From positions 248,001 through 312,000 of the forward strand of contig OZ237762.1 in the NCBI GenBank assembly GCA_965178125.1: a stretch of DNA of 64,000 bases. The letters run 5' to 3'. Numbering within the stretch: the first letter of the stretch is position 1; the number at the start of each line of letters is the position of its first letter. This stretch comes from Bilabrum cf. latius. Taxonomy: Eukaryota. The position numbers were made by a program, and so were the translations under genes. The notes under the pieces are model-generated. The model ran no database searches, was not told the origin of the DNA, and saw nothing but the letters and a program-made list of their open reading frames with translations. This document shows, piece after piece, positions 1,760 to 49,645 of this stretch.

Positions 1760-2296
1760 TTACACGCGCTTCACCCTGTACCTGTGAGTCACCTGCACGC
1801 TAGCCTTGCCGCCAGTCGGCCTGGTCAGCACCCATCCGCACTCCTCCTTGGGGCATACAACGATCGCGTTGGCGTGGCTGAACACGGTGGTGATGGTGCC
1901 GCAGTTGCTGCACTCGATGTCCAGGAAGTTCGAGTTGGGAGTCTGAACAAGACGAGCCTTCTTGTGCATGGTCTTCTCATCGGCAGCGCTGGGGTTCAGC
2001 ATGTCCTTGATCATCCATCCGGCGGCCGCCTGCAGTGCAACGTAGCAAGTGATCAACATCAACAGCATAGTACAGAGGCTGCATATGTTACAGTGACTAT
2101 AATTAACACAAGAATATGCCACGCGGTCCAGCGGTGCAGCATAGCCAACGACATTTAGTTGGCGTTCCAGCAAGCAAAATACTAAAATCCAGGCTAGCTA
2201 CCTCCACAATTATCAAATGCATACACCATGACAACAGCGTCTAAATAGATACATCATTAATTACCAATCCCGATAACCGGGTCCAAGACTCACCAT
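1760..2296 (-). CDS. RPS27: 40S ribosomal protein S27 (eS27)
   Basis: Exon 1 is the ATG alone (2296-2294), followed by a GTGAGT...CTGCAG intron 2293-2030. Exon 2 encodes HKKARLVQTPNSNFLDIECSNC...TVFSHA..C...C...L.RPTGGKA. Ends in TAA; no internal TAG. Confidence 0.95.
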
Positions 2297-24900: not shown

Positions 24901-27136
24901 ACGATGCCTGTCTGCGCAGCGACTACCCCTCCCCGCCATGACACCATCTGCGACACGGAGCCGTGCTCCATGGCCCGCACCTCGTCTGCCTAGTCCAGCG
25001 CCTGGTCGATGGGTAGGTTGGTCGCAATGCGGTGGTATACTGGGATTCCATTGATGGTGTTCCCAGAGCTCCGTGTCTGGACGATTCTCCACTGGTTCGA
25101 GGCGCCATACGTGGTTCCCCTGCCAAAGATCAAGCCGGAGGAGAACTCATTCGGGAGACGGTCCAGCTGCATCTGGCCCAAGGCAGGGGTGTCGAAGCGA
25201 AGCAATGCAGTCTCCGCTATTGTGTTTGCCCTGGCCCGTGGGTTGTTGATCTACTACGGGTGTATCGCCCAGTCGTTGAACCGCACCACCAAGCCCTCCG
25301 GCCACTCAGTGGCGGCAACTGACCCCTGGCCCGAGTGGACGACGCTTCCGTCCGACATTTGGATGACCCCGTGACTCCCCGCCTCCTGCGCAGTCGTAGG
25401 AGTGCCAGCCCCCGCCGAGTCGTCGATGGACACCAGAGTGTAGTACACGATCATGGCGCCGGTGCTTGCATCGGTCGCCGGCTGCATGTCGGATCTCATC
25501 CCCGATCGGAAGTCAGTGTGTTCCTGCATATCCCTCAGTTGGCCGAACTGGTCGCGATCTTCCTGCGAGTAGTAGTCCAAGGGACCCTGCTGGGCCGCTT
25601 CCTGCATGATGCGGCGCGCAGTGACGGCGGCAGCCTCACTAGGCAGCCTGTAGGCCGCACTCGCCACTTTGAGCCCGGATCCCTGGCCCTGCACGTCCAG
25701 GGGTCGGTAGGCAGACGCTTGCGGGCTCTGGTGGTTGCCCGGTGAGGTTTCAAACCCGACTTGTGCCAGCAGCGAGCCCCGCTGCGCTCTCGTTCTCTCC
25801 TCCTCAATGGTTACGGCCAGGGAGATGAGGTTGGACAGGTACTCGCGGCCGTAATACTGCCCCGTGTTCCCTGTGGGTTTGCATGCGGGATTCGTCTCGT
25901 CCGTGGTGGTGGTGGCATCGAGGGCCACTCCCACGACCAGGAGGACCTCTCCGGCGGTCCTGTTGAGTTCCGCGACCATCGAGTCGACGCCCGTCCCGCA
26001 GGCCGGCGCCGCGGCCTCGAACTCGGTCATGGTCGCACGGGCGAGCACGCCAGCGGCGGGTGCAGGGCTGGATGAGGGGCTGGGGGCGGGGCCTGTCGAG
26101 GCTGGGGCGGACGGCGACGGGGAGGGGGAAGCGGACGACCCGCCTCCACCCGTGCCTGGGCTAGATGACGACGACGGCGAAGGGGAAGGGGAAGGCTCGG
26201 CCGCGATGGTTCCCTTCCTCCTCCTGCCCTTCAGGGAGCCATCGGGGTTCGCGGCGATGACGAGGGTGCGGCCGGTGCGCTCAGCCACCTCCTGCACGAT
26301 CGTGTCTGCGATGGACCCCGGGGCGGTGCCCTCCTCGATGATCCGATCCGCGACGGCCTCGATCTGCGCAGTGGCGATGGGCACGGTGGGTGCTCCCTGC
26401 ACGTTGCTGCCGTCCACCGCGGCAGTCACGAGGAAACCGAGTTCGGTGGGCGCAATTGGAGCAGCATCAGGATTGTAGACGAATACCTCCATACCGTCCA
26501 CGGCGGTGCTTCCGTTGACCCCCGGCAGGAGGTCAGTCCGGTCAACGCGCAGGCCTGCCCCGAGCGCTTCCTCAAGGGCCGCCTCGATGCTCTCAGCGTC
26601 GTCACACGCATCCGAAAGGTCCTGCAATAATTGAGAAAATAAATACATAAATACATAAATGCATACTGCAAGCATGCAAAGGTATCACGAGGCGGGGCAC
26701 ACGCAGGCACAACGGCTTTCGCGCTTACGGATTCCAACTCCAGCACGATCTCGACAAAGGCGTCCGATCCCAGCTCAGTCATTCGCTGCTGCACCCCATC
26801 CGGATCGCAAGTATCAGCTGCCAAGTCAGCAGAGCTTGGAGAAGCTTCTCCATTATCATCATCAGATGTAATGGCAAGGGCGACTGCCAGGAAGACGGCC
26901 AGCAAAACGACCACAGTTGCAATACCTCCAACGCAGACCGGGCTTAATCCGAAGCAACACACGTTCTTTTTACGATTTTTCTAGTCGGTGGCACCAGATT
27001 GATCCAGCTTGGTCTCTCCTTTCACGACGTGTACCTCAACAGCCGAGGCTTCAGCTGCTCGTGGCGCGCTTGCTCCCTTGCGGTTAGGCATCGGGTTCTC
27101 TACGCCGAATCCAGGTGCTGACTTAGTTGATTCCAT
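21978..27136 (-). CDS. Large type II membrane/surface protein (~1,680 aa) with one N-terminal TM helix, a Ser/Pro linker and a beta-rich ectodomain
   Basis: ATG 27136 and hydrophobic VCVGGIATVVVLLAVFLAVALAI. Intron 26728-26622 (GTAAGC..TTGCAG). TAG at 26981, 25254, 25251, 24990 and 22764; TGA at 21978. Family not recognised. Confidence 0.75.
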
Positions 27137-27386
27137 GAGATGCTTTTCAGTCCTATTCTATTGAGAAATCTCTCTGGAGGCAGAATTGAGAGCTGAAATA
27201 TGAGGTTACGGTGACTCGCGGGCAGCCTAAAACTCTGTTTTAATTTGTAAGGTATCGTTTACGGAGCCAAGCCTCTACTATAGACTACGCTACTACTTTC
27301 CTAAGCCCGTTGCACACAGCTGATGTGCTGTTTGGCGTCACAAGTCATGCGTAGTTTCTCACTGCAGACGACTAGATCTATCGTAC

Positions 27387-30300
27387 TCAGAATTCGTCTT
27401 CGTCTCTCACGACGTCCTCCTCGAACGTGCCCCTGCCGACCAGCACGAAATCGAACGGCTGCCCCTTCCTCACGTACACCCGGAACCTGCTCCGGTACAG
27501 CTTCGCCTCCGTCGGCGTGAACCGCACGCCCACCAGCTGCGGCTGGGGGAGACCCCCGCCTGCCCCCTCCTCGTCCCCGATGCTCGCGGCCGACCCTTGG
27601 CCGCCGCCGCTGCCCCCAGGCAACGCCCTCACGCCCTCGGGCACGGCCTCCACTGTGACGAGTGCCCCGTCTACCTCTAGCCCGCTCCGGATGGTCTCCA
27701 GCCTCCACGTCTCGGTCGAAACCGACAGCAAGCAGCGAAGCTTCATGAACCCAGGGCCGCTGGACCCCGACCGAGCAAGCTTCGACACCACCACGTCCTG
27801 GCCAGCCCCAGCCCCAGCCCCAGCACCACCGTGCGATGCACCCGCCGCCTCCACCTCTCCCCTGGCTCGGGCGGCCTCCTCGGCCTCAGCCAGCTCGCGG
27901 GCCAGGGGCAGCCTGCCTAGGGCGCTGTTGAGCACCGCCCTCACCCTTGAGGCCCTTGTTCCCTGGGGCACGCCCCGCAGCACCAGCTCGCGGGCGAACA
28001 CCAGGGCAGGCAGGTCCCTCGCGGTTGCAACCTCGGGCGCGGCGGTGGGTCCCCGCAGCACCCCCCTCTACAGAGAGAACCCGAACACGCCGGGGTCGTC
28101 CACGGGGGGCTCCCTCGGCCCCCTCAGCTCCTCCTTGAGCGACTCGAGCCCCTCTGCCCTGGTGAGCCCCAGCGACTCGAAGTCGATCTTGATGGGCTCC
28201 CTGCCTGGTGGCTGCGGGACGTGCCTGATGGCCCACTCGGCATCCACCACGGATGGATTGGCAAGCCTCAGGAACGTCGTGGCGTGCTGGTCGGGCCTGA
28301 CCCTGCCAAACGCATGGAGGGAGGGCGCCAGCGTGACCTTGGGCCGGAGCACCTCGGACCTGAGGCCGACCCTCTGCTTGTGACCGTTAGCAAACTGCAG
28401 GACCAGCAGGCCCCGCGAGCGATCCACGAGAGGGCGACCATGTGCCCCCGGCATGCGGTGCGGCTTGCCACCCGGGACCACTGCCGTGCTCTTCTCCAGA
28501 TCGCCCCCCTCCAGAGCGGCAGCATCCTCCTCGTCTTGTTCCCCGGCCTGGCCCTCGGGCTGCGACTCGCCCACGAGCTGCTTGTAGTCTGCAGTGCCAA
28601 GCAGCAGCGCGGTGTCTTCCCCGAAACCGCCTGCACTGCCACCGGAAGCAGCACCACCCAGAGTCCCGGGCGCAGCTCCCGACGCAGCTAACCCGCCCTG
28701 GCCAGCACCACCGCTTGTATGTCTGTTCCCTGCGTCATTCTGCGGAGAGAACACCACCCGAACGGCCACGGACGTGCCCGGAGGCAGCGTCAGTATGTCT
28801 TTCCCAGCCTCCTGCATGCGCCTCAGCTGGGGAGTTACGTCGGCTGGTGGTGGGGGCGTGACGGCCACTGAGGTTTCGACCCCCTCGATGCGGAAAGGGC
28901 CCCTCGTCCACCTGGCAAACGTCATGGGCGCCGTCATGATGTTCGTAAGAGTGATGGTCTTGCTGTGCTCGGGGTGCTCGGGCGGCCTGGTGGCCCACGC
29001 GGTCACCTTGAACCAGGGGATGCCCCTCTCGCCCCTGCCCTTGTCCACGCTGAGCTCGGGTGTGGAGGGCTCGATCCTAGTGGCGAGACTCACTGCATTG
29101 CGCTGCACCAGCGTGCGCATGATTTGCGCCGCCTGCACCCTCCCACCCCCTCCCACAGAGGACTGGGAGCGGCTTCCCTGCAGGGCACCTGGGGGCGCGA
29201 CGGGGGGCGATGCAGGCCGAGGACCACCGGGGCCGAGATCGCCACCAGTTCCTGCTCCATCCTGACCCTCGATCACACCCTCGGGCTCATGCTTGCTCTC
29301 TCCGCTGCCCGGGGGCTGGTCCGGGCCTGTCTCGTCAGACACCAGCGCAAGCAGCTCTGCAGGCGGACGCTTCCTCCGGGGAACAAAGACGGCATCCGCC
29401 ACCAGCAACCCATTCCGGCCGTCCTGGGGGCCCCACCCAAGCGCTTGTTCCCTGGCCTGCTGCTCGTCGGTCGCAACCTCAGGCGAGGCCCTCACGGTGA
29501 ACACGCACCTGCCCTGGGCAGGCACGGTGCCTCGGGCAGGCACGATCTTGAACGGGGGCCGGTGCCTTGGGCCGCGCAGGGTGGGCTTCCGCACCACGAC
29601 CTCTACCTCCCTCTTGTTCCCTGACTCGTCCGTGCTGCCAGCGGGTGCGGGCTCCATGAGCACCTCCACCTCCCGCTCGGGTAGGCTCGGGTTGCGGCCC
29701 AGCAGCGCGTGCCAGACCACATGGGCATCCAGTGGGCTCGAATTCGTGACCACGATTCTGCGGTCCACGGTGGCCGACCCCTGCGCGATCTGGCCGAACC
29801 CCAGCCGCGGCGGGACGGTGTTGAGCGCCAGCCCAGCCACGTTGGGCTGTATCTCCAGCGGTGTCCCCACCACGTTCACCCGCAGCGGCACCCTCACCGG
29901 CTCTGTGCCGTCCATGTCGATCACCAGCTCGTCCTCGTAGGCACCGGGCATGTCTGCCACGCAGCTCACCCGGATGCAAGCCCACCCGAACGGATCCAGG
30001 TGCCTCTCGGCAGGCGATACCTGGAAAGCAACCCCGTTCATGAGCCGCAGCTGCGACCGCATCACCCTATCCTTCTGACGTTTCCGCAGCAAGAACTGGC
30101 CACCGTCGGACTGGAAGGCCTCTACGCCCTCCGCTGCGTCGCTCAGCCACGCAGTACGCTTCTACAACGAGGCACCATCTTCCCCGTCCTCGCCGTCGAG
30201 AGCGGGTGCACTGGTGGTGCGGAGCGCCCTCGCAGCCCCGGCGCCCGAGCCAGCCGCTCCATCAGCACCGCTGCCGCCACCGAGCGCAGGTGAAACACCC

Positions 30301-33300
30301 TCGAATTTGCCACTGAGCAGCTGCCCCAGCAGCTCCTTGCCCTGCGGGCTGCTCCGAAGCCTCCTGCGCAGCGCCCGCGCCTCTGGGCCACCCGTCTTGA
30401 GCATGCCAGCGGCTCGCATCCTGTGCCTGACTGCCTCCTGCCCGCTCGACCACACGATGGGGTCGTCCAGCGCGGCGGGGCCCAGCTCTTCCAGCCCCGC
30501 GTTCAACGGAGTTCCGGGCTCCTCCGCAGCTGGATACCTGTTCACAAATGCCCTGAAATCCGTGGGAATGCCAGTCAGGTTCATCACGCACACCGTGTAC
30601 GTGCGCCGGCTGAAGGTTGGGAACTCGTGCCCGAAATCTAGGCCCCTGCACGCACCCACCCTCGCCCCCGCCCTGCTCGCGCAGTCGTGCGCCACCCTGA
30701 CGGCGTCCATGGTGGCGTCATCCTGCACCGCCCTGGCCCCGCCCCTGGCCCTCTTCCTCTCCTTCTCCTTGTCCTAGATCCTGGCGTGCACACGGCTGAA
30801 GCGCCACAGCATGCACCGAATCAGTGGGATGAATGGATCGCCCTCCTCCTCCTCCTCCTCCTCCTCCTCCTCATGCTCCTCCTCATGGGCGGCATCCTCC
30901 TGCCTGCCTCCCTGCCCCTGCTCCTGGCTCTCGCCGATCCCTTCCCCGGCCACGGCGCCGTCTACGTCCTCCTTCCCTTCCTCGCCGTCCTTGGATTCCC
31001 CGGCACCTGCCTCCGCAGGCAAGCGCCCTTTGCCGACATCGGGGCCTGCACCATCCGAGCCGGACCCATCATGTTCTCCGCCTGCACCGGCGCCTCTACC
31101 TTCCGCTTGTTTCTAGTCATCAGCACCGCTATCTGCACCACCTTCATGTCCTCCAGCACCTGCTCCCTCCACCAGCTGATACTCGCGCAAGGCGTCCGGG
31201 TGCCGATCCAGCCACGACCTGAGGAGCACCTGCTCATCCCCACTGGCCTGCAGCATGCTCGCGGGCACACCGCCATCCTCCGACTCGCCCTCGCCCTCGC
31301 CCTCGTCGATCGCAGGCACGTCTAACAGACCCGCCCTCCTCGCGGACCCGAGTGCCTCCAGAATCAGGCCCTTGAACTCGTCCAAGGGAACCGTGCGGCC
31401 CCTGCCCGCTGCCTCCACCCTCCGGATCCTCCCCCGCACCGCCTCCTCCTCTTCAGCCTGCTCCACCAGCTCCAGCGGGAGGCCGAGCTCCGCGTACAGC
31501 TGCCGGAGGTGCGTGTCCACGGTAGGGGCAAGGAAGGAGGAGGGAGGCAGCAGCGGCCGGCCACGGTCGTCCTTGCCCAGCTCACGCACGAGGCGCCTGT
31601 TCCCTGCCTTTTGTTCTCTGGGGGGCCCCGAGGCGCCGCCAGAGGAAACACCGGGTGCATTGTCCTGCGCGCCCACAACAGCGTCTCCTTCGGCATCCAG
31701 CGCCAGCGGACACCCCTTCTCGCTGAGCACCGCAAAAGCAACGGAGAGACCCTTGACGATGCCTTTGATCTCGATCCCGATCGGCCTCGGTACTCCCTGC
31801 ACGTCCACTGCCATCAGCCCGGACATACTGCCCACTCGGGTGGGCGTCAGCGCCACCGTCACCTCCCTCTCCTTCCTGCCCTCCAGCGCGCCACTGTTCC
31901 CTGGCAGGATAGCCGCCTGGTAGGGCGGCACCGGAGGCACCCTGCCGCCCCCGATGGATCCGGTGCTAGAAGTGGACGCCGACATCACGGACTGCCCGCC
32001 GGAGATGACCGTGGCAGCCATGCCGTCCGGGCCGATCCGAAGCGTGCCACCTCCCCCGCTCCCGCCCCCGATGGACGTGCCATCGTCCGGAGACAGCTCC
32101 AGCCCCATCGCGTCGTTGATGCTCTGCAGAGCCCTGGCCTGCATCATCCCAGCGTACGGGTCCACAGTGTACTCGGCCCCAAGCGCAGACTCGTTCTTCA
32201 GAACGAACGTACGTGTCTCGGGCACACCGAGAAACCCGATCCCGTACAGCAGCCGATGCGTGCTCGCCTTGATGCGTGGAGCCTGCACCTCAGCCCGAGC
32301 ACCCACCCAGGTGTCCGCTTCCCCGCCATCCAAACGCACCCGGACCATGCCCCGGAAGGAGCCAGTTTGGCCACCCGCCTGGAACACGGCCTGCACGTCC
32401 ATTTCGCCGTAGGGAGGCAGCACCACCACGCTGGGCTCAAACCGCATCGAGTCAATAGAATGCTGATTGCCGCCCTTGCCACCCTTCACGGAGCTGCGCT
32501 TGCGACCGTGGGACCTGTCTGTCCACTGGCTGCCATCCCCGCGCTACTGATTGGCCCCACTCGCCCCCACTGGTCCTTCCTGCTCTGCAACAGCTGACTC
32601 CCCACCGGCACCCACCACGGGTCCTTGCGGCAGCTCACTAAACGCAGACCCCCCCGAGTCCAGCCCGCCCGGCCGCATGCCCCCGATAACGGCTGACGCC
32701 GTCGATGCAGCGCTGCTGCTTTCACCAGACAGACCCCCGGGCACGAGCGAGGACATGTGCATCATGCCCTCGCCAGCGCCGGACAGCCCTCCCAGCTCGT
32801 CGTTGAGACCCACGGCGCTGCCGACACCGAACCGGACGCTCCCCGGCTCTGGATACGGGAAAGAGGCCAGCGACGCTCCAGCGCTGGTGGGTGCTCGCAG
32901 GGACACCATGGGCCCCGCATCGGCAGCTGTGGCGGCCTATTCCACCGGGCCAGCCATGGCGAGCTCCTGCAGGTCCAGCACGTCCTTATCCTGCACCGGC
33001 ATGCAATGCAGCTGCACTCTCGCGTGGCAGCCGCTCATGTTCTGCAGCCTGAGCGGTCGCCTCTGCAGCTGCAGGGTCTTGACCAGCCCGAAGTCCAGCT
33101 CTGCCTGCGCCACCACGACGAGGGGCGCGTCCACGGCTGCAGCAATGTGCACGCTCTCCCCTCCGACAGAGGTACCGTCGGGCAGCTGGAAGACGACGTC
33201 GGCGTCGCACTCAAACTCCCCTGGACATGCGGCCTCGAATCCACAGGTGAGAACGACCGTGCCGCCGGGGGCAATCACGCCCTCCTCGGGTCCGAAGGAG

Positions 33301-36300
33301 AACACCTGCGTGTCAAAGCCAGCTCCCGTCCCCTCGGTCGTCTCGCCAAGCGCGGCAAGCGCCACCACCTCCGCCGAGCTGACCTCGAGCGCATCGATAT
33401 TGCCTCCGGGCACTCCGTCCTTTGCGGCAAGGCCCGTTGACTGCGGAGGAGGGGCGCCGCTGGAGGTGCCAGCAGACTTCCCTGCTTCACCTCTCTCCCT
33501 GGTTTCGACGATGCCGTCGCCCGTGGCGAAGGTGGCGGCGGTGGAGTCTCCACCCCGCACCGGTGGGCTGTACTCGGCGAGGGCACGGGCCGCATCCACC
33601 GAATTCGCGACCAGAAAGTACCCCTCCTCGTCGGCGTGATCGCCCTCCCCATCCCCGCTCGAGTCGGACATGGCCCCGCCGGATCGATTGCTGCCAGAGG
33701 AGCCCGGCCTGCCCTGATGCATGCCATCCCTGGGACTTGTCATCCCCCCGATCCCATCCCCATCCTCCTCCTCCCCTTCCCCTTCCCCAGCCTCTCTTGT
33801 GTGAGCCTCCCCCTCACCCACAGCGAACTGCTCTGCAGCAGATACCACGGCACCGCTCAGCCCGGGCTGCTCCTCCATGGCATCTCCACCAACATGCCCT
33901 GCACCACCATGCCCTGCACCACCACCACCACCATTGGTACCGCTGCTGCCGGGACGGCTGTCTCCCTTGCCTCGATCGCCCAACAGACGACTCCCACCAG
34001 CGATCGGCGTGCTCCTGCCCGGGCCCAAACCACCACCCCTGGATGAAGGCAGTGCCAGCACCCCGCCACGCCCCGCCCCGCACAGCTCATCCACCCTCCG
34101 CTGGCACGGCCTCAGCCGGACCCTCGGTTCCCCGACGAAGAACCTCACAGGCGTGGCACCGGGGTTCTCAAGCACCACCTCTCCGGACCGTTGTTCCCCG
34201 GGCAGGCAGGGCCTCAGCAGCACCGCAGGCTCTCTGATCGCAGGGGGGTTCACCGCGCCCTCTCCCGCGAGCAGCATCCGCACGCAGCTTTGTGTCTCTC
34301 GCAGCACGCGTCCGGGCGCCTCCTCCAAGCCGATGGCACCTGGGGTAACCTGTTCCCCCATGGTCTCCCTCCTCACCCTCTCCATCTCCGCATCGTCCTC
34401 CTCCTGCCGGGCCGACTCACGGGCCGTTGGCGCCCTGGGCACGCCTCTGATGAGTAGCCTCCCCTCGGCCCTGTGTTCCCTGGCCGTCTGGGGAGTGAAG
34501 GTCACTTCGAAGGTGGCCTCGCCCATGCCCTCGATGCGGCACGCGGGAGGGCTGATCGTGAACGCGCCCACGGATTCGGTGGAGGCCAAGGAGGGCGTCT
34601 TAGAAGCCACCGCGAGTGCGATTCGGTTCAGCTCTGCGGTCTCGAGCCCACTGAGCTCCTCCGCGTCGATCCCATCCGCCCCCGCCCCCTGCAGCACCTC
34701 TGCAATGGCACCGCCCGCGCGGATCTCAGCCTCGGCACCCTCCCCGAACTCGAGCTTGCGCAGCGTCTCTAGGCCTAGCACCTGCTGCAGGCCGTCCAGA
34801 GAGTCGCCCTCAACCAGCGCCTTCCCGCGCCTGAGCAGGGCGACCTGGTCCGCAAGCAGCGGCGGCAGCACACCCGCCAGGCGATGTCCCTATTCCCCGC
34901 CGTGCGCCTGCCGCACGGCCGACACCTCTGCCTCGGGGACGGTTTCGAAGTCCACAAGCACCCTTACTGCAGCCCCCTTGCCGCTCCGCCGGCCGTGCCT
35001 TCCCCCTCCACGGTTCCCTGCCTTGCTTTGCACTGTTCCCTGGCCTCCTTCTCCACCCCCCTGGTTCGGTCCCAGAGCAGCTCGTTCCGCCTCGTCTGCC
35101 TCGCGCACGATCCGATGCGCGTCCTTGCTGTCCAGCGGCATCACGCGGGGGGCTCGCCCGCGGACAGGGCGCACCACCCAGCTGGCGTCAACCGGGAGCG
35201 GCGTGTCGTTGCGTATTGTGACAGTGCGCGTGACCTGGGTCCCTGCTGCTTGCAGACCGAAGGAGAGACGCTCTGCCAGTGCCAGCGCGGTGGCACCAGC
35301 GGCGGCAAGGGCCCTCGGTACTCTGGGAGCCACTGCGGCCCTCTGGACCAGCTGCTGGGCCTGCGCGGCTGCCATGCCCCGGTCCTGTGAAGACGGTCCC
35401 GTCCTGACGAGTGCGCCCATGGCCTGTTCGATGGCATCCGTGGGCGACATCCCAAGCAGGCGGGCCAGCCCTGCGGCCCTCTGCTTCATCAGGCGCCCGG
35501 TGGACACGCGGCTGGAGCTGCCTGCCAGTCGGGAGGTGCTGGGGGCAAGCCCGCCACCGACAGAGCCCGCTCTCGATGACCGTCGCGAGGATAACCCCTT
35601 GCTGGGGGGCGATGCAGCCTTATCCCCTGTCCCCCCAGGGGACGATGCACCCATCCCTTCCAGTGTCGGGACATTCACGCCGCCCTTGCTGCCATCCTTC
35701 CCCTCTCCCTCTCCATCTCGCTCTCCATCGGGATGAGCACGGGCCTTGGGGCTCTGCAATGGTGAGGGCAGCCCGCTCCCTGGCATCTCGCCCCCTCCTT
35801 GTTCCCTGGGATCCATCGCCTATCCGTTGTCATCTCCACCGACTGAGTCCGGCAATACTAGCTGAGCGTCCGTGGCAGTCCTCAGCCCCGCCGTCCTGGC
35901 CCTGAGCGCCCCTTCCATGTGCCTCCGCAGCATCCCGCGGACCTCCTCGGCCTCCACGGGGCCCAGCTGCCTGCGGTCGGGAGAGAAGGCGGCGCGGGAA
36001 TATGCCGCACTGGAGGAGCTGCTGCTCTGCGACGAGGAGCCCGCCTGTCCTCCCACCGCAACGACCACGGCCGAGCTGCCTGCCTCCTCCACTGCGGGAG
36101 GCAGCTGGGGAGGCTGCGCGGGCACGGCCTCGATGGCTGCCAGCCCCACCCGCATCTCGGAGCATTCTCCCACCAGCGTGTGGCGAGTGACGTCACCAGT
36201 GTCTGTGAGCATCACCACCTCACGGGTGTACCTCCCGACTGCGGGGGGCGCGAACAGGACCCGAATCTCCGCCTCCTGCCCCGTGCCCAGCTCGAACTGA

Positions 36301-39300
36301 GTTGGCTCGAGCACGAATGGAGGGCTGGCGATGCGGCCAGGGGCAGGGCCGTAGGGATTGCCCTCCTCCTCGTCCCCCGGAATGGCGGGCATGTTGAGCC
36401 TCCACGCTACTGAGGGGTCCGTCCCCGCGCGGGGGGGGAAGGCCTCAGCAGGGAACAGCCTGCACACCGTGGGGGAGCCCGAGTTGCTGAACCGGAACGT
36501 CTCGAAGGTCACGTCCATGGGCAGGCACAGTCCGGCCGAGAAAGACGAGGACAGCGACAGCACGGGCGGAGGCCTAGTCGCCACACACCGCACCGCGAAC
36601 TTGCCGGCCTCCGTGATGACTGTCAGCGTGTCGGTGTAGGTGCGATACCCGTTGGGCGTGAAGTGCACCCTAACCGACATGCCCATGCCGGGCGCAATCA
36701 CGTTGGACACCCGCCCATCCTGTCCGCCACCGGGCAGCTGGTCCGGATCGTCCGCGATCGGCCGCAGGCCGCCGCCACCCCTTTTCGACTCCGAGTCGCC
36801 TTCCTCCTTGCCCTCGCCCATGCCCCGCTGCGTGACCTGCCACCGGGGCTTGCCCCCGAGGTACACGGGCGGGTCGCAACCGAAGTACTCTGAAGAGGGA
36901 GGTATCACCCTGAGGGAGCGCCCAAGCCTGTCCGCGTTCCTGAACGTAAGCACCGTGGAGTAGGACCCCTCGGGGGCAAACCCCTCGAAGATCGCAACAC
37001 CGGGAGACACGAGGAAGGGCCCCGCCTGCACGGCGCCCTTGATCGCCCGCGCCGGTGGAGCCACCGTCACTCCACGCAGCGGGGCTCGTTTGGCCGCCTC
37101 GATGGCCGCCTCATCGGGGTTGGATCCCCCATCGAAAGCAGCGCTCCGCACGATTTCCAGCAGGTCCCCGCGATCGTCGCTCACGACCACGGTGCCGCGG
37201 CGAGTCTCCAGCCCCGGTCCCTTGAGCACCACAGCCGCATCCCCAGGTGACCGAGGCAGCCTTCCGTCCGCCACCGCCTACCGGATGTCCCTCTGCAGCT
37301 CGATCTGGTCGTCCACGGCCGCCCCCGCCGCCCCCGGCACCGTGGTCAGTGCCACGGCCTGGTCCTTCCTGCTCATAGTGGACAGCATGGCTGCGCTTGG
37401 ACCCCCAGGCACCACCACGACCTCTTCAGGCTCAGCACCAGCGGCGCGCTTTGAGGCATGCGCGCCCATGCTGCTGGGGCCAGCAAAGAGCTGCGACTCG
37501 TCGGCAAACGGGTCACCACTAGCTGACGTCACAGCGGCAAACGTCGCCAGCTTGCCCCCGGCACCGGCACCGGCACCGGCACCGGCACCGGCACCGCTAC
37601 CAAAATCTCCTCCATTGTCGCCAGGGCCGGCATCAGCACCGATCCCGAGAGCCGCACCCAGCTGTGTCCCAGCGAGTGGATGCTGCGCCACGGAGCCCCT
37701 CCGTCCCTTTGCCTTTCCTCTGCCCCTGTTTCTCGGCGGCCGTTGCGAACCGCTCCCATCACCGGATGCACCCCCCGACTACTGCCGCTGCTGGTGCTGC
37801 TGCTGCTACGTGTCGAGTACTCTGCTTCGGTCATGCCTGGGATTGCGGAGGTATCTCTGGCTGCGATCCATCCGCTCCTTCATGTCCGCATCTGCGAGCT
37901 CCTCATCCACGGGCTTGCGGGTCCTGCCCTGCCTCTTGCCCCGATCCCGCCGAGCCTTCCCACCAGCACCCGCGACTGCCCCTGCCCTAGCCGTGCTACC
38001 GCGGGGCCCCCCGGCTGGCTACACCCCCGCCGGTAGTGCCCTTCTAGGGGGCAGTCCCAGCTCCGCGGCCATCTTGGCATCCAGTTCCTCGTCTTCGAGT
38101 CCAATACCCCTACCGTCGTCATCCACCCCGATCTGGGCCTCGCTCCCGGCAGCACCCCTGCCCTTGGCTGCATCCCTCCTGCGCAGCGATGCTTCCAGCA
38201 CCTCCAGGTCGCTCTTGCCCTCCTAGTACCCCTCCCCATCTTCATCTTCATCTTCGTTCGAGTCCCCGTAGGACTCGCCCCCGAACTGACCAGCACCAAC
38301 TCCGTCCCTGCCAATCCCCGCAGCAGAGAACGTGACTCGCTTCGGGTCGGGCCCGATTGCACCCGCGCTCGTCAGGCGAGAAGCTATGCCCCCACCCGTC
38401 TCACTGGCCCCAGCTCCTGGACCAGCCGCCTAGGCCCCACCCCCTGATGCAGTGCCCCCGACCGCCGTCTCCTTCCCGAATCCACCGGTGGATTGGAGGA
38501 AGCGGTCCCTGTTGCTGGCCGTCCTCCTGGCCTGCGAAGCCGTGGCTGCCATGTACTGCGGGGTGCCTTCAGTGCGGTGGAAATCGGGCGGGGCCTGCCC
38601 CCTGGCCATGTTCCCGCTGCGCACCAGCTGGTCTTCCTTCTCCTTGTCTAGTAGCTATGAGGCCAGAAGGGCCTCCCCGCTGCCGACGGCTGCGAGGGCG
38701 TCTGCACCCGACGCGGGTGCAGCGGGGTCGAGGTATCCGAAACCGGCTGCAGCACCAGTGCCAGTGGCGGAGGCAGTGGAGGGGACGCCTGGTGGACCGG
38801 CAGGTGCTTGCGATGAGCCGGCGAGTGCGGCGGGCAGGTGGGACCGCGGCAGGGGCACTTCTTCTGCCTGGACTAATCCATGACTCCTGACATTTTCGTA
38901 GTGCTTCTTGTCTACGGCTGCCGCTTCTTTTCGAGCGCGCTGCATCTGGGCTTCGGTCGCAGCTGCATGTCGGACCTCGTTCGCCCTGGCAGCCTCGATC
39001 TGCGATAGTGACTCGGTGCAGACCATCCAGCAGGATATTTAACGGTACCAATATCACAATTGTTCGAAGCATTGCTAGAGTACGGCTGCTTACCTAGCCT
39101 AATTCGTCTGCATCTGGATCTGCAACAGCTGGCCCCAATTCAGCTGGACTACCAGACAGGGACACCGGAGCCTCTTCCGAAGATAGTAAGCCAATTCTTC
39201 CGTGATCACCGAGGCCTGTATCCCTGGCCTGCTCTGCACCGCCGTCTTCATCAGCATCGTAGAGATCAGCAAAGTTGCTCTTTATAATGTGACCTAAACT

Positions 39301-39354: not shown

Positions 39355-39503
39355 CTAATGCTACTGTACTGGCTATTTTCTAGGTGAGAAATGGCACTTG
39401 GTTGTGCAGAAATCGCCGGTCGATGATCTCCTTTCCGTTGGCAGAGTGGTAGCGTGCAGTTTGCAGCATTGCTCGCCTTGCTCGCCACTTCTTCGTCCGC
39501 AGC

Positions 39504-42479
39504 ATGAAGCGGTACAAAATTTTGAAGCGGCTGGGTGATGGAGCCTACGGAACTGTATATAAGTGTGTGTCCAGGCAGACTGGCGAGGAAGTGAGATCGA
39601 TCGTGCGTTCTGGCAGGGCATCCGAGTTTTGCGCTTCTGGCAGTATTGCTCGTGAATCCACGCATGACGTGCCGCCTCATGGGTCTCGCAGGTTGCTGTG
39701 AAGAAAATGAAAAAGAAATTTTCAACCTGGGAAGAGTGCATGCAGCTTCGAGAGATAAAGGTACGCTATGGATTATGCAGTTTGCAGTTGCTGCACTTGC
39801 ACTTGCTCCGTCGACCCAGAGACGGTTGCTCTGTGGCACTTTCCCATTTAATTACCCATTACTGATACTCGTTCAATTTGATGCATTATTTACTCTGCAT
39901 GCTCTGCCCATGTGCCTTGCTCGCAGAGCCTCAAAAAGCTCAACCATGCGAATATTGTCAAGCTCAAGGAGGTCATTAGAGAGAAGGAGGAACTGTGGTT
40001 CGTGTTTGAGCTTATGTCTGGGAACGTCTACGACCACATGAAAGATAGAAAGAAGCCATTCACGGAGGCGCAGGTGCGATCGATCATGTACTAGATCTTG
40101 CAAGGCCTCGCTCATACGCATCGCCACGGCTTTATGCACCGCGACATCAAGCCTGAAAACGTGCTCACCAAGGGGGACAATGTCAAGCTTGCCGACTACG
40201 GCCTAGCCCGAGAGATCCGCTCCCGCCCGCCCTACACGGAATACGTTTCCACGCGCTGGTACAGAGCGCCGGAGATTCTGCTGCGGTCCACCGTGTACAA
40301 TAGCCCCATCGACCTGTTCGCGTGCGGTTGCATCATGGGAGAGCTGTTCACGCTGAGGCCATTGTTCCCTGGAGCAAGCGAGCCGGATCAGCTGTACAAA
40401 CTCTGCGCAGTGCTGGGGTCGCCCTCTCCTGAGGAGTGGGCGGACGGGCACCGCCTGGCAGCTCGCCTCAACTTCAAGTTCCCCGCCTTCGCGAGGCCTC
40501 CCCTGTCCACAGTGGTCCCGGGAGCCTCCCCTGCGGCCCTGGATCTCATGGAGCAGATGCTGAGGTATGACCCTAACAGGCGACCCACCGCGCAGCAGGC
40601 CCTGGCCCACCCCTTCTTCACCCAGAGCGCTGTGCAGCTGCCCGGCACGTTCATGTCTCCGGTGCCACAGGGAGGCCATGCGGGTGCAGCGGGGTTTTAG
40701 GCAGGTTAGGGCGCTAGTCAAGGCATGGTGAGCGGTGCGGGAGTGGCGGGGGGGACGGGCGAGGGGTCTTCGTCAGGTGCAGGCATGGGGGCCCAGCCAG
40801 GCACCGGTGGGACGGGGGCGCTGGCAGGGGGGATGGGCATGGGCATGGGGATGGGGATGGGGATGGGGATGGGGATGGGGATGGGACTTGGTGGAAGTGG
40901 ATAGCAGCCGATGAGCATGGATGCCGGTGTCGTGGTACCGAGTTGGATGGGCTCGGGGCAAGGACAAGGACAATCGCAGTCGCAGTCGCAGTCGCAGTCG
41001 CAGTCGCAGTCGCAGTCGCAGCAAAGCAGTTCGGATAGAAACAGCAGTGAGGTTGGGACTGGGGTTGGGAGCGGTGGGCGCGGGGGCAGTGGCCCCAAGA
41101 TGCGAGCTGCGGATCTGTTTGGGGACATCTCTGGGCTGGGTGACCTGAGTGACCTGAACGACCTGCTGGGGGATACTGGCGGGAGCAAGGCCGCTGGCTC
41201 GGGCGGGCGAACCGGGACTGGAAGCGGCAGCGGAATCGGAAGTGGGTCGGGCGGTGGTGATCGGGGCTAGAGCAAGGGATACGCTGCCCGATCTTCCAGC
41301 CAGATGCCCCAGGCGTACGGCATTGGGATGCATGGCAGTTCGCAGAGCTCTGGAATTGGGCAGCTCCATTCGCAGCACGAGAGCAAGCACCGGGCATTGG
41401 CAGCATTTCACGATCATGACCAAGGAGGCGGTGGGCATGCCGCTGAAATGGGCATGAACGGAGGCACAGACCACGGCGGTGGCGGCAGCGGGCTGCCGAG
41501 CCTTCCGTCGCAAGGGGTCAGCTATGGCATGCCTGGCTATGGTGCAGGAGCAAGTCAGGGCAGCTCTGCCGGCATGGGCATGGGCATGGGTGGCATGCCT
41601 TCGTCTATGATGACGAGTGCACCCGCACCGCTGGGTGGAGGTTATGCTGGACGTTTTGCAGGAGCATCGGCTGCGGTGGCCGCGGCCCGCACAGGCGAAG
41701 GCGGTGGGCGACTTGGGGCCGGTGGGATGGGTGGCCCGAGCACCAGCAGTCCCTATGGGCACCATGGGGGAGGCAGCAGCAGCAGCGGCAGCGGCAGTCA
41801 CGGGCACGGGCATGGATATGGATCATATGGTTCGAGCAGCTCACCAAGAGTTCCTTCCGGATCTGGCATGGGCGGTATCGGGGGGCCTGGGGCAGAGGTC
41901 GGCCACCGGAGCAGGCCGTCTGCGCTGGGCAGCGGTAGTAGAGGGATGGGGGGAGGCTCGCTGGGCAGCTCGGGTATGCCCGGGTCGGACTTGCTCCCGA
42001 TGAGGAAGAAGAGCCCGCTGGACGCGCTGGGGGTGGAGCTGGGCAGCGTTGGACAGCATCAGAGCCGCAAGCCGAACAGGCACGATAGGGCGAGGCAGGG
42101 GCAGAGGCCGGGGAGGTTGTCATCCCCTGCGTCCTTGTACGGTCTCTCCGGGATCAAGTAGCCGAAGGGGCACGGGCCAGTGCGCGCGGGGCCTGGCGTG
42201 CTGGGTGGGCTGGGCGGGATGGCGGGAGTCACTGGTGCAAGGGCGGGTGGCAGGGCCCTGCAGCCCATTGGTGGCGATGGGATAGGAATGGGGCAGCACC
42301 GGTCACCCGTGAGTAGCTTCGGTACGGACCCAGGTAGCATGGGCATGGGGAAGGGAATGGCAATGGGCATGGGAAGTGGGGCCGTGAGCCACGGCAGGAG
42401 GGCGGGGCACTCGGGTGCTTTGAGCCCACTAGCAGATGCCAGCAAGTACAGGTACGGGAAGCAAGCTGGGGGGACATGA
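39504..42479 (+). CDS. MAK: MAK/ICK (RCK-family) Ser/Thr kinase with long low-complexity tail
   Basis: [33 protein letters not shown] and [24 protein letters not shown]. Introns 39591-39691 and 39761-39926. TAG at 40092, 40698, 40707, 40902, 41268 and 42159; TGA at 42477. Confidence 0.93.
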
Positions 42480-42580
42480 GTGGTGCCCAGAACCTGACGG
42501 AATCTGGTTGCCGGGCCAGACGCGTAATACTTTTGAATCACACGTTCACTGTCAGCATGGGACCAAACAAATCAAAATCT

Positions 42581-45172
42581 TCATGCGCCTCTCACGAAAT
42601 TCACGGCAGGGTCCGTCAGCTCAACGGACAGTTCGTTCACCACCGCTGGGGCACTCACATTCAGCCAGCCCGCGTCACCTCTAGCCCCTTTGCACATGCT
42701 CCTGGCCTACTCCACGAGGCCCTTGACCATCTCTACACGGTGGTACCTGTCGTACACAGGTGCAACCACTAAAGCGCGGCGGTCAGGCACCACGGGATAC
42801 TGCCCGTCTCCAGGCCCGCATCCAAGCAGCGCCAGGCCGTCATCCCAGTCCGCTGGCAGCTCAGACACGTCGTGCGGCTTGCCTTCGCCGGCTCCTCCAA
42901 AGTACCCCAGCCGGGGCACAAGGCCGTGCCAATCGTACCACCTCTGATTCCCACCAGTCACTGCGTTGGCACCCCCAGCACGCATGGGTTCGATCGATGC
43001 GATCGCGGCCACACCGCGGACCCGCCCGTCCAGAGCACCAGCCACCAGCCCGGCCATCCCGCCCGCAGAATACCCCACAATGTAGATCCGCTCCGGATCC
43101 ACGGCTGGGAAGTCGGGCAGCCGATCCACCCTTCCCGCAGGTCGGAACGCCCCATCGCTCGTGTTGGCGACCAGCAGGTCCACGGCCGATCGTGCGTCCC
43201 AGGCCATGCGGCCCAGTCTAGACCACGAGGCGTACCTATCGTAGAAGTCGCGCCCCTCGTGCTGCCTCATGCTGAAGCCCAGCTGGTCGTACGTCACCAC
43301 CACGGCACCCGCCTGCTCCGCCAGCGACTCGATGATGCTCGTGGGCTGGTGGGGGTAGCCCTCCACGAACCCGCGCTGGTATGACAGAGGGTGCAGGAAC
43401 ACCACACCGGGCCTGCCCTTGCCCGCCGCATCCAGCCGCATGCCCTCTTCGCCACCAATGTCGTAGTACATGTCCCCTTTGACGTATGCCCCAATGTTCA
43501 CGTTGGTCCTCTGCAAGGAGGACTGCGGCTCGACAGGCGCAGCACTGGACTGGCCTCTACCAGTGCGGTTCTGATTCTATGCAATAATGCCACGCAGTGG
43601 TGCAGACTCTGCACGACTCTAGCCACCGGCTTCACCGCGCACACTGCCGTCTCCTCCCAGCTCGGCCTGTTCCTGATCCAGCTTCAGTTCGTCGTGTCCT
43701 AGCATCACGTCGATGTAGGGAAACGAGTCATACACGCCCCCGGGACTCCACGGCGTTCCCGTGGCAGCGCCTGGCGCATTCCCCCACAGCCATTGGAATC
43801 GGTCAATTCGGGAAGATTGTTTGCCGGGTAGGGCAGGAGGGCCTTGTTGCCTCTCTGCCCAGCCCTCCCATGAGTACCCCCGGTGCAGCAGATTAGATGC
43901 TTCCGGCCAGCGAGCGTCGTACGTGTACCCGGGAAGTCCGAAAGGATGGTAGTCGAAGTGCCAATCGAACCAGTCCACGTACCTGTGCGGTGTCTCCCAC
44001 CCGTGATGGGCTCCAGGCCGGTGGTCCAGCCTGAGGTTGCCTCGCCCGCCGGCGCCTGACCCGCCCACGAAGTCGTAAACGTCCAGCCCTGACAGATAGG
44101 TCGTTTCAATACCGAAGGAGGGGTCGCCGTTGTCGGTCCACGCGTTGGCATGCAGCACCGGGCGGGGGGCAATGAGTGCCAGCAGTCCGTGGGCATCGAT
44201 GGGGTTGGTGTCTTCGAAGCCAGCCATGCCCTTCAGTGAAGGAAGCCACCAGGGGCCGGGCCAGAAGGAGCTGGGAGTCTCGCTGAACGTGTTCCCTGAG
44301 CTGAACCGGTAGGAGTTAAACCCTGGCACGCCCGAGCTCGAGTCTGCCACTGCCGCGATCCTCTCGTCCCATGCAGCGGCGATCAGGGACTGCTTGCCGT
44401 TGCGGCTGTGCCCCGTGATCCCGATCCGGCTCGTGTTCAGCCTGCGGGAGCCTGGAGCGTTCTGCCCCTGCCTGTCAAACTCGTAGAGCAGGTCCACCAC
44501 CCTCGCCGCCAGGTACGCCCTCCTGGCGATCAGCTGGAAGGTGGCCCCCGGGTCCACTCGCTTGAACCCCGCAGTGGGGTCACCCTCCTCGCAGTGGGGG
44601 CCGTCTGCGCAGTTGTTGTCCGAGCCTGGGTACGTGATGGCGAGGTAGCCCCTCGCCGCCGCGATGATGCTCCAGCGCCGGTGGTTCGTCTGTGTCATGA
44701 ACACGGGGCACGGGGGTGAGCTCTGGCTGTCGGGGGCGCCGCACACCGCTGCTGGTGGCCACATCGCCTCGACCTCTAGAGTGGTCGGCTCCCCGGGCGT
44801 GGAGAAAGTCACGGAATACCACTCATCCGTGAAACCACGCGTCACAGTGGAATTCAGCACGCTCCACCGCGCGATCGCGGGCGGCGGGACAGACGGGAAG
44901 CTGCCGTAGTAGCTCTGCTCGAGCAAGTGCCTGATCTCGTCCTTGCGATCGACCCATACGTCGCTAGTGGGTCCGTATGAACGCACATCAGTTCCGTTCA
45001 GGGATGTGAGCAAGTCCGGGAGTGGAGTGGTAGAGAAATTGCGGGGCAAACGTGCCGCGATCTTCGGTGGCAAACGGCTACGCAAACCATCTTGCCACTG
45101 AAATCGCGTGTTGTCTGCATACACTAGTACTCCAATGCCTAACCAACACGTAACTATGCTTAAGACGCCCAT
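42581..45172 (-). CDS. Secreted tandem alpha/beta-hydrolase: CE15 (glucuronoyl esterase)-like domain plus a second hydrolase domain
   Basis: Signal peptide, RIGITGHSRNGK..L.AAAWDERI, DAHGLLALIAPRP and a second nucleophile elbow IYIVGYSAGG. TAG at 42707, plus 43619 and 43577 unless about 43642-43511 is an in-frame intron. TGA at 42581. Confidence 0.8.
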
Positions 45173-45303
45173 GATGGCGACCTAATACCAGTAAAGTGTG
45201 CTCAGTTGCAGTTGGGGCTTAAGTATTCGTTACAGTATCCATAATTCCGATTTAATCTCGAGAACGCACAAATTCGTGCAAACTCTCGTCTAAACGATTC
45301 AAT

Positions 45304-48300
45304 ATGAAGAACAAACTCGGTCTGACTGATACAATTGCCATGGTCCGTGATCTACAGCGCTTTGCTGGTATGAAGGTGATCAATGTCTATAACCTGAACC
45401 GCAAGATTTACCTGATCAGACTGCAGAACAAAAGTATGGGCAAGCGCGTGCTTTTGATCGAAAGCGGAACTAGGATGCATACCACGCGATACAGCAGAAC
45501 CAAGCCACCTATGCCTAGCACCTTTGCGATGAAGCTGAGAAAACACATTCGTGGGAAGCATCTGAACAGCGTGACTTAGCTTGGCCTCGACCGGGTGGTG
45601 GTGCTGCGATTCGGGCTGGGAGAAGGAGCATTCAATGTCATTGTGGAGCTATATGGGTAGGGGAACATCGTCCTGACCGACAATTCGTACACGGTGCTGT
45701 CGCTGCTCCGAGTGGTGGACGCGACAACCACGGAAGGGAAAGAGGGGGAAGCGGCCAAGGCACCGGCCCGCGGGAAGCGGGGTGGCGCCAAGACCAGCAA
45801 AGCAGCTGCAGGGAGCGGCGCGTCTGAATCTGCGGCATCCGCATCATCGGGAGAGGGGGAGCGCGTGTGGCGGGTGGGCGCTCCGTACCCCGTGGCGTTT
45901 GGCGCCAGGGACAGGGGAGGCCTCACTGACAGGATCGCGAGGAGCTTGCCCAGCGTGGCAGTGGTGGAGAACCTCGAGAAAAAAGAAGAGGGTGGTGATG
46001 GTGAGCCCGCTGTGGATGGAGCTGCTGCAGCTGCTGCTGGAGATGGAGATGACAAGGAGGCTATCGGGTCTGCAGCACACGATGCCGCTGGCGGTCCGAC
46101 CCCACCTGCCGGCATGGATCTTGCCGCGGAGACCGGCACGCTCGTCACATAGGTGAAAGAATTCCTGGCCGGGATGGCGGAGCGGCCCGCCCCCGGTCGC
46201 AAGCAGCGCGCTCGTCACACCCTTCGGTCCACGCTTGCGGCCCGGGGCAGCGGCCTGGAAATCTTCGGCACCGATCTTCTGGATCATGCCATCGTGGGCG
46301 CCGGGCTGGACCCCACCGAGCTCGTGTGCCAGGCACCTCTGCACGGCAAGAAGAGCAAGGGCAAGAAAGGCGGCAAGGTGGAGGCCAAGCCGGCAGGCCC
46401 AGAGGGCTACGGCGTTCCCAGTGAGGAGGTGCTGGCCCGCCTGGCCGAGGGCTTGAAGCGACTGCCGGGCATGCTTCGAGAGATTGGGCTTAGCGCATCT
46501 CCCACGGCGTACATTGTGGTCAAGCGAAGGGACGGTGCTGCCCTGGCCCATGGCCCGGTGGCTGTGGCGGAGGGTGCTGGTGCCCTGGATGGATTCGACG
46601 ACGATGAAGAGGAAGGTGAGCCAGAGGGTGAGGGGGAGGGGGCTAGCAAAGGCGATGGTGAGAGTGGTGTGAAGGGCGGTGGAGAAACAAGCAGCGAAGG
46701 AGAGGCCGCCGCGAAAGGATCCGCGGGTGGAAGCGACGCCGCTAATGCCAGCGCTGGTGCTGGGGCTTCCAGTGACGAGCCGGCCGGTGCCGACACCAGC
46801 GGCAGTAGCACGGGCAGCTCTGGCGAGTCCAAGAGCAAGCAGCCCAAGGATCCATTCGCCGAGTACGACTTTGTAGAGGTCAGTCCATCCCTGTTCAAGC
46901 AGCACGAAAGCAAGGCATACATCCCGGTCGCCAGCTTTGACCGGGCGTTGGACGAGTACTTCACGCGCGTAGATGCGGCGCGGGCAGACGCTGCCATTTC
47001 CGGTGCAAGGACGGCGGCCATGGCCCGTGTGGATCGCGCCAAGGCCGACAGCGAGAAGCGCGTGGGGGAGCTCCAGGCCGAACAGCAGCGCGCGGGCCAG
47101 TGGGGCTACCTGATCCAGAGCAACCTGCCGCAGGTCGACGCAACCATCAAGACCCTACGGTCTGCTCTGGACAGCGGCATGAACTGGGGCGATTTGGAGC
47201 GGCTGGTAGAAGCGGAGAGGGAGAAGGGCAACCCTGTGGCGAGGGCGATCGTGAGTATGGACCTGCCGAAGAGGAGGGTTACGGTCATGCTGCGCAACTG
47301 GGACGTCGAGGTGGAGGAGGACGGCGAGGACCAAGAAGAAGAAGAAGAAGATAGCGAGTCGGAGGATGAGGATGGCGAGGAAGAGGAGAAGAACGAGCAG
47401 GAGCAGGCATTCGAGCCCGTGGAGGTGTCCATCGACCTCACTGCGCCTGCAAACGCCTCAGAGTACTTTCAGCAGGGAAGGCTGGCGCGGGAGAAGGAGG
47501 AGAGGACCAGGGCAGCGGCCAGCGAGACTCTAAAGAGGCTCGAGAAACAGGCGGACAAGGACGCGGAAGCAGCCGTGCAGAAGGCCCACAGGCAGACGGG
47601 CGTCGTGCAGGCGTCCAGGAAGAAGGCATGGTGGGAGAAATTCGCGTGGTTCCTGTCTACAGACGGGCTCGTTGTGGTGGCCGGTAAGGACGCACACCAG
47701 AACGAGATGCTCGTGCGCCGCTACCTGCGGCCGCAGGACCTTTACGTGCACGCAGAGATCCACGGCGCTGCCACCGTGATCGTGCGGTCCCCCCTCTTCG
47801 AGCCCGAGCCGGGGGCTGGCATCCCGCCCTCTACCCTGCAGCAAGCGGGGGCTTTCTGCATCTGCAGGAGCGCGGCTTGGAAGGCCAACCGGCCCACGAG
47901 CGCCTGGTGGGTTTTCGCCTCGCAAGTCAGCAAGACCGCCCAGAGCGGGGAGTACCTGACGACCGGGTCCTTCATGATCAGGGGAAAGAAGAACTTCTTG
48001 CACCCGGCCAGGCTGGAGCTGGGCCTCGCCATCGCATTCAAGGTGGACGAGGAATCCGCGCTGAAGCGACTGGCCAGGAAGCCGCCGATGCGGGTGCAGC
48101 TGGGCGCTGTGGGTGCGAGGGAGGGCGCCCGGGACTCACTTACTGCGGCGAGCGCGGCCGCTCCCGGGTCGGAGGGCGAGGCTCGGGGAGCAGCCAAGAA
48201 GGGAGGCTAGGCAGGAGCAGCTTCTGCCGCGGACACGGGGGACGTCCCCGCAGCAGCAGGCTCTGCGGCCGAGGCCTCGTCCGGTGCGGGCAAAGCTGGC

Positions 48301-49320
48301 AGCAGCGGCGGCAGTGGCAGTGGTAGTGGTAGAGGCGACGGCACGCCGGCCTCACGGGGGACAGGCATGAGCACTGAGAGCGTGCTGGCGGGCCAGGCGC
48401 TCCCGCAGATCGGGGGCAGGAAGGTGAAGAAGGCGGAGGAGATCGAGCACGAGAAGGCCACCAAGGCCGCCATCCAGCGCAAGACGGAGAAGCTGGACCA
48501 GGCCCAAATCGAGAGGGCGAGGGCGGCTCGCGAGCGGAGGAAGAGGAAGAAGAGGGCAAAGTACGCCGACCAGGACGACGAGGATCGGCTGGTGGCGATG
48601 GAGGCCCTGGGCCATTCCACGGACGAGCTTCGTGCCAAGATCAAGGCTGAGGCTGGTGAGGACAGCAACAGCGACGGGGAGGAGCTGGGCGAGGGGGTGG
48701 GGCAGGGAACAGCGCCGATGCCAGAGGGTACCACGCACGTGGTGGGCACCAAGTTTGTGGTGTCCACGGCCGATCCCGGGGAGGAGGGGCCCGGGTTGGG
48801 GACGGGTGCTGCTTCGGGTGCTGGCGCCGGGGGTCTGCTTGATGCACCGCCTGCGGCTTCGAGGCACCAGACCTCTGGCGGCGCTGCCTTCGATGACGAG
48901 GACGAGGGTGATGTGTTCGTGCAGCAGTCGCATGGGTATACCGGCGAGGAGCTCAACATCGGCTCGCTGGTGATGGAGCCCAAGGAGGGCGAGGTGCTTC
49001 TGCACGCTGTGCCGGTGGCAGCCCCCTATGCCACGGTGGCTGACGCGAGGTACAGGGCAAAGCTGGTGCCGGGTGCCGGTAAGAAGGGCAAGACTGCCAA
49101 GTCGGTTGTGCAGCAGATGCTCGGCGGCAAGGTGCATTCTGGTAGGGAGAAGGATCTACTGCGGGGACTCAAGGACGAGGAGCTGGTGCAGGTGATGGTG
49201 GGAGACTGCAGGATCACCAGCATCAGCAACTCGACCAAGGCAGGGGGGAACAAGGGGGGCAAGGGAAAGGGCAAGGGCAAAGGCAAAGGAGGCAAGGGGG
49301 GCAAGAAGGGGGGCCGGTAA
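45304..49320 (+). CDS. NEMF: NEMF/Rqc2 ribosome quality-control subunit (NFACT domains)
   Basis: LLIESGTRMHTT, PSTFAMKLRKHIR, LGLDRVV, ELYG*GNIVLTD, WWEKFAWFLS, GKDAHQNE, YVHAEIHGA, QVSKTAQSGEYL.TGSFMIRGKKN and VPVAAPY. TAG at 45577, 45658, 46150 and 48208; TAA at 49318. Confidence 0.95.
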
Positions 49321-49645
49321 TCAGCCGGGGGGCAAGACCGGCAGCTCTGGAGCGTGCGGCAGCTCGCTGCTGGTGCGTAGCCTTGAAAAAGATAGGATAG
49401 GATAGCTGGTACATGCAACTGGATCGCCGTGCATCGTGTTCATCTGTTCAATGCGAATATGGCATGGGCACGCTCACTGCGGACACTTCCACCACCCCAT
49501 GGCACGGGTGACAGCGGGACTAGACCCTGATTATGCTAATTGCCAGTGGCAAATGCCTCTGCGAAAAGCCCAATCTGCACACCAAGCCCCTCGCTCGGTT
49601 ACACCCTCGGCGGGGATCGGATCAAGGGTCTGATCAAGGATCGGA

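Follow-up and report, generated by a model that had tools for sequence, protein, structure and literature searches.

Nuclear genetic codes in which UAG and UAA differ in meaning are rare. Reassignment of UAG alone to glutamine (Gln) is reported for Iotanema spirale, Hartmannula sinica, Trochilia petrani and Protocruzia tuzeti, and UAG is read as leucine in a rhizarian and in TARA ciliates and as serine in Scotinosphaera (PMC11687900). In the fornicate I. spirale, UAA and UGA are stops, a tRNA-Gln(CUA) is predicted and the release factor eRF1 carries the substitution T32G (PMC5304391); H. sinica, T. petrani and P. tuzeti likewise stop at UAA and UGA (PMC11687900). UAG is also Gln under NCBI table 6, used by many ciliates, ulvophytes, hexamitins, Streblomastix and Amoeboaphelidium (PMC11687900), and under NCBI table 15 in crAss-like phages (PMC9523058).

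The window, the whole stretch of 64,000 nucleotides analysed here, probably shares the table of I. spirale and the three other UAG-only species; the code table is known, and the host appears new. The main stop of I. spirale is UAA (PMC5304391), whereas 18 of the 22 gene ends in the window are UGA; moreover, Iotanema is a fornicate, whereas a MAK-type kinase of the window groups with stramenopiles, in a tree that holds no fornicates. In H. sinica and T. petrani, 87-92% of genes terminate with UAA and 18.5-31.8% of Gln codons are UAG (PMC11687900), against UGA-dominated ends and a UAG share of about 11% in the window. GC content is given as 27.4-53.6% for the phyllopharyngean class (PMC11687900) and is 54-69% per 2 kb in the window. 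In table 6 hosts UAA is also Gln, whereas UAA ends genes in the window. The crAss-like phage genomes depend on bacterial machinery (RF1/RF2), unlike the window, which belongs to a eukaryotic nuclear genome with eRF1.

An in-frame TAG in a MAK-type kinase gene

The MAK-type kinase gene lies on the forward strand and consists of three exons and 902 codons with six internal TAG. Exon 1 (39504-39590) opens with the ATG at 39504 and is supported by its splice joint in contigs from two sequencing runs, X5 and X7. Both introns, intron 1 (39591-39691, 101 nt) and intron 2 (39761-39926, 166 nt), have GT-AG borders and are absent from these contigs; exon 2 (39692-39760) is defined by the same contigs together with the homologue alignment. 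Exon 3 (39927-42479) matches the Pfam domain Pkinase (E=7e-58), holds TAG at 40092, 40698, 40707, 40902, 41268 and 42159, and ends at the TGA at 42477-42479. Its identity to 120 homologues is 59-69%, and the named best matches include MAK and ICK. The HRD, DxG and TEY activation motifs of MAK/ICK (RCK) kinases are all present, the DxG motif being DYG where DFG is usual (40132-40200, forward strand). Compared with other MAK/ICK (CMGC/RCK) kinases the protein is ordinary except for a long Gly/Ser/Met-rich tail, and its codons are the point of interest.

Positions 40083-40106 read ATC ATG TAC TAG ATC TTG CAA GGC in the frame of exon 3, the TAG at 40092-40094 being codon 108. A preliminary description of this DNA had placed the TAG in the middle of the kinase domain, upstream of HRD, within IMY*ILQG, and the gene model and homologue alignment bear this out. 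Its warning that a stop here would remove the catalytic loop is equally sound, as termination at codon 108 would leave 107 residues. The column is nearly invariant for Gln, as the same description had expected of homologues: Q occupies it in 120 of the 120 best homologues (119 of 120 by a second alignment method), the modal residues per column spell IMYQILQG, and CDK structures among the best 5 alignments also have Q there (YLYQLLRG, YLFQLLQG).

Retention of the TAG in spliced contigs

Ten of the 12 listed runs, from five studies, contain the region 39450-49400 wholly or partly, and none is on record as RNA. We compared contigs from runs X5-X8, leaving out X1-X4 (the best-matching DNA runs and likely the source) and X9 and X10, which have a small share. 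The runs are flagged 'RNA?', X5 as 'probably DNA', and a transcript origin rests solely on the skipped introns. A 967-nt contig of X5 (record 1) skips both introns, shows no difference from the window over 39925-40732 and keeps the TAG, indicating, from contigs and with the run type a guess, that UAG is retained in mature mRNA. The TAG is likewise kept in X7, a run from another study (record 16), where a spliced contig extending to 40073 is joined by an overlapping contig (40048-40202) that spans the codon. The look across 40092-40094 in transcripts that had been proposed at the outset thus finds the TAG in place. Across the kinase, an esterase gene and a gene for NEMF, 12 of 13 TAGs fall inside listed contigs without a difference; the kinase TAG at 40902, beside a repeat, is outside every listed contig piece. 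No TAG/CAG polymorphism occurs among the listed contig pieces of X5-X8. Assembly error, splicing and complete editing of the codon 108 TAG are excluded.

The sequence of X5-X8 over 39450-49400 is identical, partly at low depth, and is filed under three other organism labels. Given these labels, the host may have been present in the runs as prey or as a passenger in co-culture.

A local accident could take the form of a pseudogene with a nonsense mutation, of misassembly, or of a site repaired by splicing or by RNA editing from UAG to UGG. It has on its side only the general expectation that an internal stop is usually a lesion, and some room for partial editing given that contigs drop rare variants. 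However, the same letters are found in runs from other studies and in the spliced contig, 82 internal TAG are spread over 22 frames of the window, the homologues carry Gln and not the Trp expected from A-to-I editing, and an in-frame TAG is common to the window and to a metagenomic relative, L001, at 82% identity. We give such an accident practically no weight. The reading that we hold with strong confidence is instead that of an intact, spliced kinase gene in a genome where UAG is Gln throughout and UAA and UGA are likely stops, that is, a nuclear code of the table 15 type.

TAG across the window

Under the standard code no stop-free frame exceeds 741 codons. Opening TAG lifts this maximum to 3883 codons, and TAG read-through in the window is therefore beyond chance; opening TAA leaves the maximum at 741 and opening TGA gives 1313. 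The 22 terminal frames, about 17,400 codons holding the 82 internal TAG, were run to the first TAA or TGA (a TAG terminator would escape detection) and end with TGA in 18 cases and TAA in four. Gln is written as CAG 572 times, as CAA 104 times and as TAG 81 times, making TAG a minor Gln codon at about 11%; this tally lacks one TAG, in the last exon of MTHFS, which ends at TGA and is included among the 82.

Long frames that appear once TAG is opened belong to the ArfGAP, OST-alpha/TMEM184, CFAP65/HYDIN Ig, kinase, glucuronoyl esterase and NFACT families, with a weak match to the gamma-tubulin complex. Nine of 14 scanned frames have a Pfam match, two of them being exons of a GH3 gene, and five have none. 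Further genes carry labels that we assume to be apt, namely DLEC1-like, MECR-like, ZNF207-like, FKBP and cyclophilin. The longest is a flagellar gene with CFAP65/HYDIN-Ig Pfam matches (27387-39002, reverse strand), presumably DLEC1-like, whose last exon of 3871 codons contains 15 in-frame TAG and no TAA.

Several other genes of the window deserve description in their own right. The product of a gene with one apparent intron at 21978-27250 on the reverse strand, about 1,700 aa long and with an N-terminal hydrophobic anchor, is predicted to be a type II membrane protein; its 1,551-aa last exon (21978-26633, reverse strand) has four in-frame TAG and no Pfam match. On the forward strand, a frame of 1,447 codons at 17605-21948 carries 14 TAG, GA repeats and three copies of the unit AAAAIDVLGEAVNDWR; its C-terminus is Cys-rich and it has no Pfam match. 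A two-domain esterase at 42581-45172 (reverse strand) combines a glucuronoyl esterase domain (PF22244) with an AXE1-like alpha/beta hydrolase, and one X5 contig spans this gene and stops near the gene ends. The GH3 glycosidase at 12247-15200 (reverse strand) has an N-terminal ricin-B lectin domain, and none of the 25 Gln codons in its last exon is TAG. Finally, an acidic tandem-repeat protein with ETGAADEA-like units (1-1454, forward strand) is cut by the start of the window; its final TAA comes 7 codons after a TAG.

Amino acid at the TAG codons

We checked four genes codon by codon at nine TAG columns. All three columns that are at least 80% conserved have Q, one each in the kinase, NEMF and the MECR-like gene, while five columns are variable and one is mostly gap. 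In NEMF (45304-49320, forward strand), the TAG of residue 92 (45577-45579) is present in all four compared runs and falls on a conserved Gln column: Q is found in 23 of the 25 homologues with a residue there and in the structures of human NEMF, yeast Rqc2 and bacterial RqcH. In what we take to be a MECR-like gene (last exon 7026-7880, forward strand), the TAG at 7563-7565 corresponds to Q in three of three relatives, at 78-96% identity. The TMEM184/OST-alpha gene (10325-12013, reverse strand; Pfam PF03619, E=2e-62) has in-frame TAG at residues 34, 72, 138 and 322; at residue 138, 76 of 149 sequences have Q and 56 have R. Residues 34 and 72 of TMEM184 and residues 119 and 969 of NEMF are variable and hold little information, and the TAG columns of MTHFS (where 3 structures have E, P or D) and ARL are uninformative. 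Sense codons in the four genes are standard, as in CTG, which is Leu at 30 of 30 positions, with noise in five rare codons (1-4 occurrences each). Pyrrolysine at UAG was considered as well and rejected, the homologues having Gln.

Two metagenome scans were run, the first yielding no relative and the second one locus, L001 (204-1269), with 55% GC against about 63% in the window. It encodes a TMEM184 protein identical to that of the window at 287 of 351 residues (82%). Its codons at the four TAG residues of the window gene (34, 72, 138 and 322) are TAG, CAG, CAG and GCT, the GCT column lying in a loose tail, and it has one further in-frame TAG of its own. Given the shared TAG, the private TAG and CAG at two columns, this second species appears to use the same code, with TAG and CAG exchanging for one another. 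In public protein sets (P0298, P0156) the L001 protein begins at a Met downstream of an in-frame TAG, which for P0298 is directly after the TAG common to L001 and the window.

Taken together, the genome-wide Gln reading that the preliminary description had implied from a single codon gains backing from NEMF, TMEM184 and the MECR-like gene. Judged from these alignments, TAG almost certainly stands for Gln throughout the nuclear genome.

UAA and UGA as likely stops

UGA is the main stop in the window and the 18 TGA-ended frames contain no TAA. The kinase TAG that started this work was by itself silent on TAA; the present evidence says that TAA is still a stop. The alternative is table 6 (the ciliate/ulvophyte/diplomonad code), with TAA and TAG both Gln and TAA merely rare in a GC-rich genome. 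Among nuclear variants table 6 is the most widespread (PMC11687900), the window has few TAA triplets (172 and 145 per strand), and past the TAA of NEMF 21 further codons follow until a TGA. Against it, the A-ending member accounts for 15-20% of CAR, GAR and AAR pairs, and about 15-20 internal TAA would be expected in those frames if TAA were Gln; with none seen, p=0.002 even when all four terminal TAA are taken as sense. No frame is lengthened by opening TAA alone. In addition, the TAA of RPS27 (1760-1762, reverse strand) coincides exactly with the homologous C-terminus: residue 72 aligns with human residue 76 of 84, which makes residue 80 the counterpart of the human last residue. The TAA of NEMF (49318-49320, forward strand) closes a tail that is Gly/Lys-rich like the tails in which homologues finish. 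We regard table 6 as very improbable and retention of UAA as a stop, with four TAA gene ends in 64 kb, as highly likely. RPS27 (1760-2002, reverse strand) is a divergent protein: its zinc-finger loop is longer by two residues, and its C-terminus differs from the usual one in sequence but not in length.

Another alternative is a dual, context-dependent UAG like that of Condylostoma or karyorelict ciliates, which would mean Gln inside genes and termination close to some 3' ends. In three of the 22 frames the last TAG stands 7-9 codons ahead of the terminal TAA or TGA, and those proteins could stop at TAG. However, the three genes whose C-terminus can be checked against homologues (MECR-like, RPS27 and NEMF) all end at TGA or TAA, and two unambiguous stops remain in the window, unlike the dual codes described in PMC11687900. 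We consider a dual UAG a shade less probable even than table 6, and retain a code in which UAG is Gln and UAA and UGA terminate.

Placement of the host

The window consists of nuclear eukaryotic DNA with introns and a flagellar-type gene, and its host is a GC-rich, intron-bearing, flagellated protist. In a careful tree of the kinase, built from 40 rows hand-picked from the 120 top matches and holding no named ciliate and no fornicate, the protein of the window falls in a clade with support of 95/91 whose named rows are all stramenopiles, and within it in a subgroup (90/86) with Cafeteria, Hondaea and Mucochytrium, labyrinthulids among them. Its branch is long (0.54). A quick tree of 121 rows gave a similar but weaker grouping, and in an AU test a placement of the kinase outside the stramenopile clade stays admissible (p=0.128). 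No close relative was named in the NEMF tree (27 rows) or in the TMEM184 tree (146 rows: the window, P0298 and 144 of 150 matches, six being too short). On this one gene, the host is probably a stramenopile; we lean slightly toward Bigyra within that group.

We found no nuclear reassignment of UAG in stramenopiles in the main texts of the open-licence literature, among the best 25-30 matches of broad queries, and the available portions of PMC13524828 and PMC12153298 add nothing further on the host lineage. We put at about an even chance that the host is a stramenopile and that, in addition, no earlier report of such a case exists. The wider proposal, which we likewise hold to be evenly balanced, is that a small clade of GC-rich heterotrophic stramenopiles (likely Bigyra, near bicosoecids and labyrinthulids) split UAG from UAA independently, with UAG becoming a Gln codon and UGA the main stop. 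On this view the change, which would have taken place in the absence of AT pressure, would be the first nuclear stop-to-sense reassignment of stramenopiles and as yet undescribed; at least two species, those of the window and of L001, would share it.

A model for UAG decoding

The model proposed for Iotanema (PMC5304391) could also apply here. By the simplest route, a copy of tRNA-Gln(CUG) would have been duplicated and its anticodon mutated to CUA, the mutant tRNA still being charged by glutaminyl-tRNA synthetase. Such a tRNA-Gln(CUA) would read UAG and skip UAA, since its wobble base, C, does not pair with A. In parallel, eRF1 would have lost or weakened its recognition of UAG while keeping that of UAA and UGA. 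In the 64-kb window, ARAGORN detects no tRNA gene, no Rfam match including rRNA was obtained, and eRF1 is not among the recognised genes.

UAG could alternatively be decoded by near-cognate tRNA-Gln(CUG) once eRF1 ceases to see UAG, with no dedicated tRNA(CUA). The RPS27 exons and the presumed cyclophilin exons that we checked contain no TAG, as this reading would allow. Such readthrough is within the capacity of tRNA-Gln in standard-code organisms (PMC13192750), and no suppressor tRNA is reported from the incomplete assemblies of H. sinica and T. petrani (PMC11687900). On the other hand, up to 15 TAG per gene demand efficient decoding, and both Tetrahymena and hexamitins are documented to have a tRNA-Gln(CUA) (PMC5304391). 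We think near-cognate decoding unlikely, and a dedicated tRNA(CUA) together with a change in eRF1 the reasonably probable mechanism.

Biological significance

If the host is a stramenopile, a known rare code would be new for that group. Explanations that invoke AT pressure or the dominance of UAA would lose force if the code had a new origin in a GC-rich genome that stops mainly at UGA. Such an origin would also supply a further natural pairing of eRF1 and tRNA with which to study how release factors distinguish UAG from UAA. With near-identical sequence in the runs of five studies and relatives at 78-96% protein identity, the change could be bracketed on the tree. For the clade of the window and L001, gene calling under the standard code shortens proteins, as in P0298.
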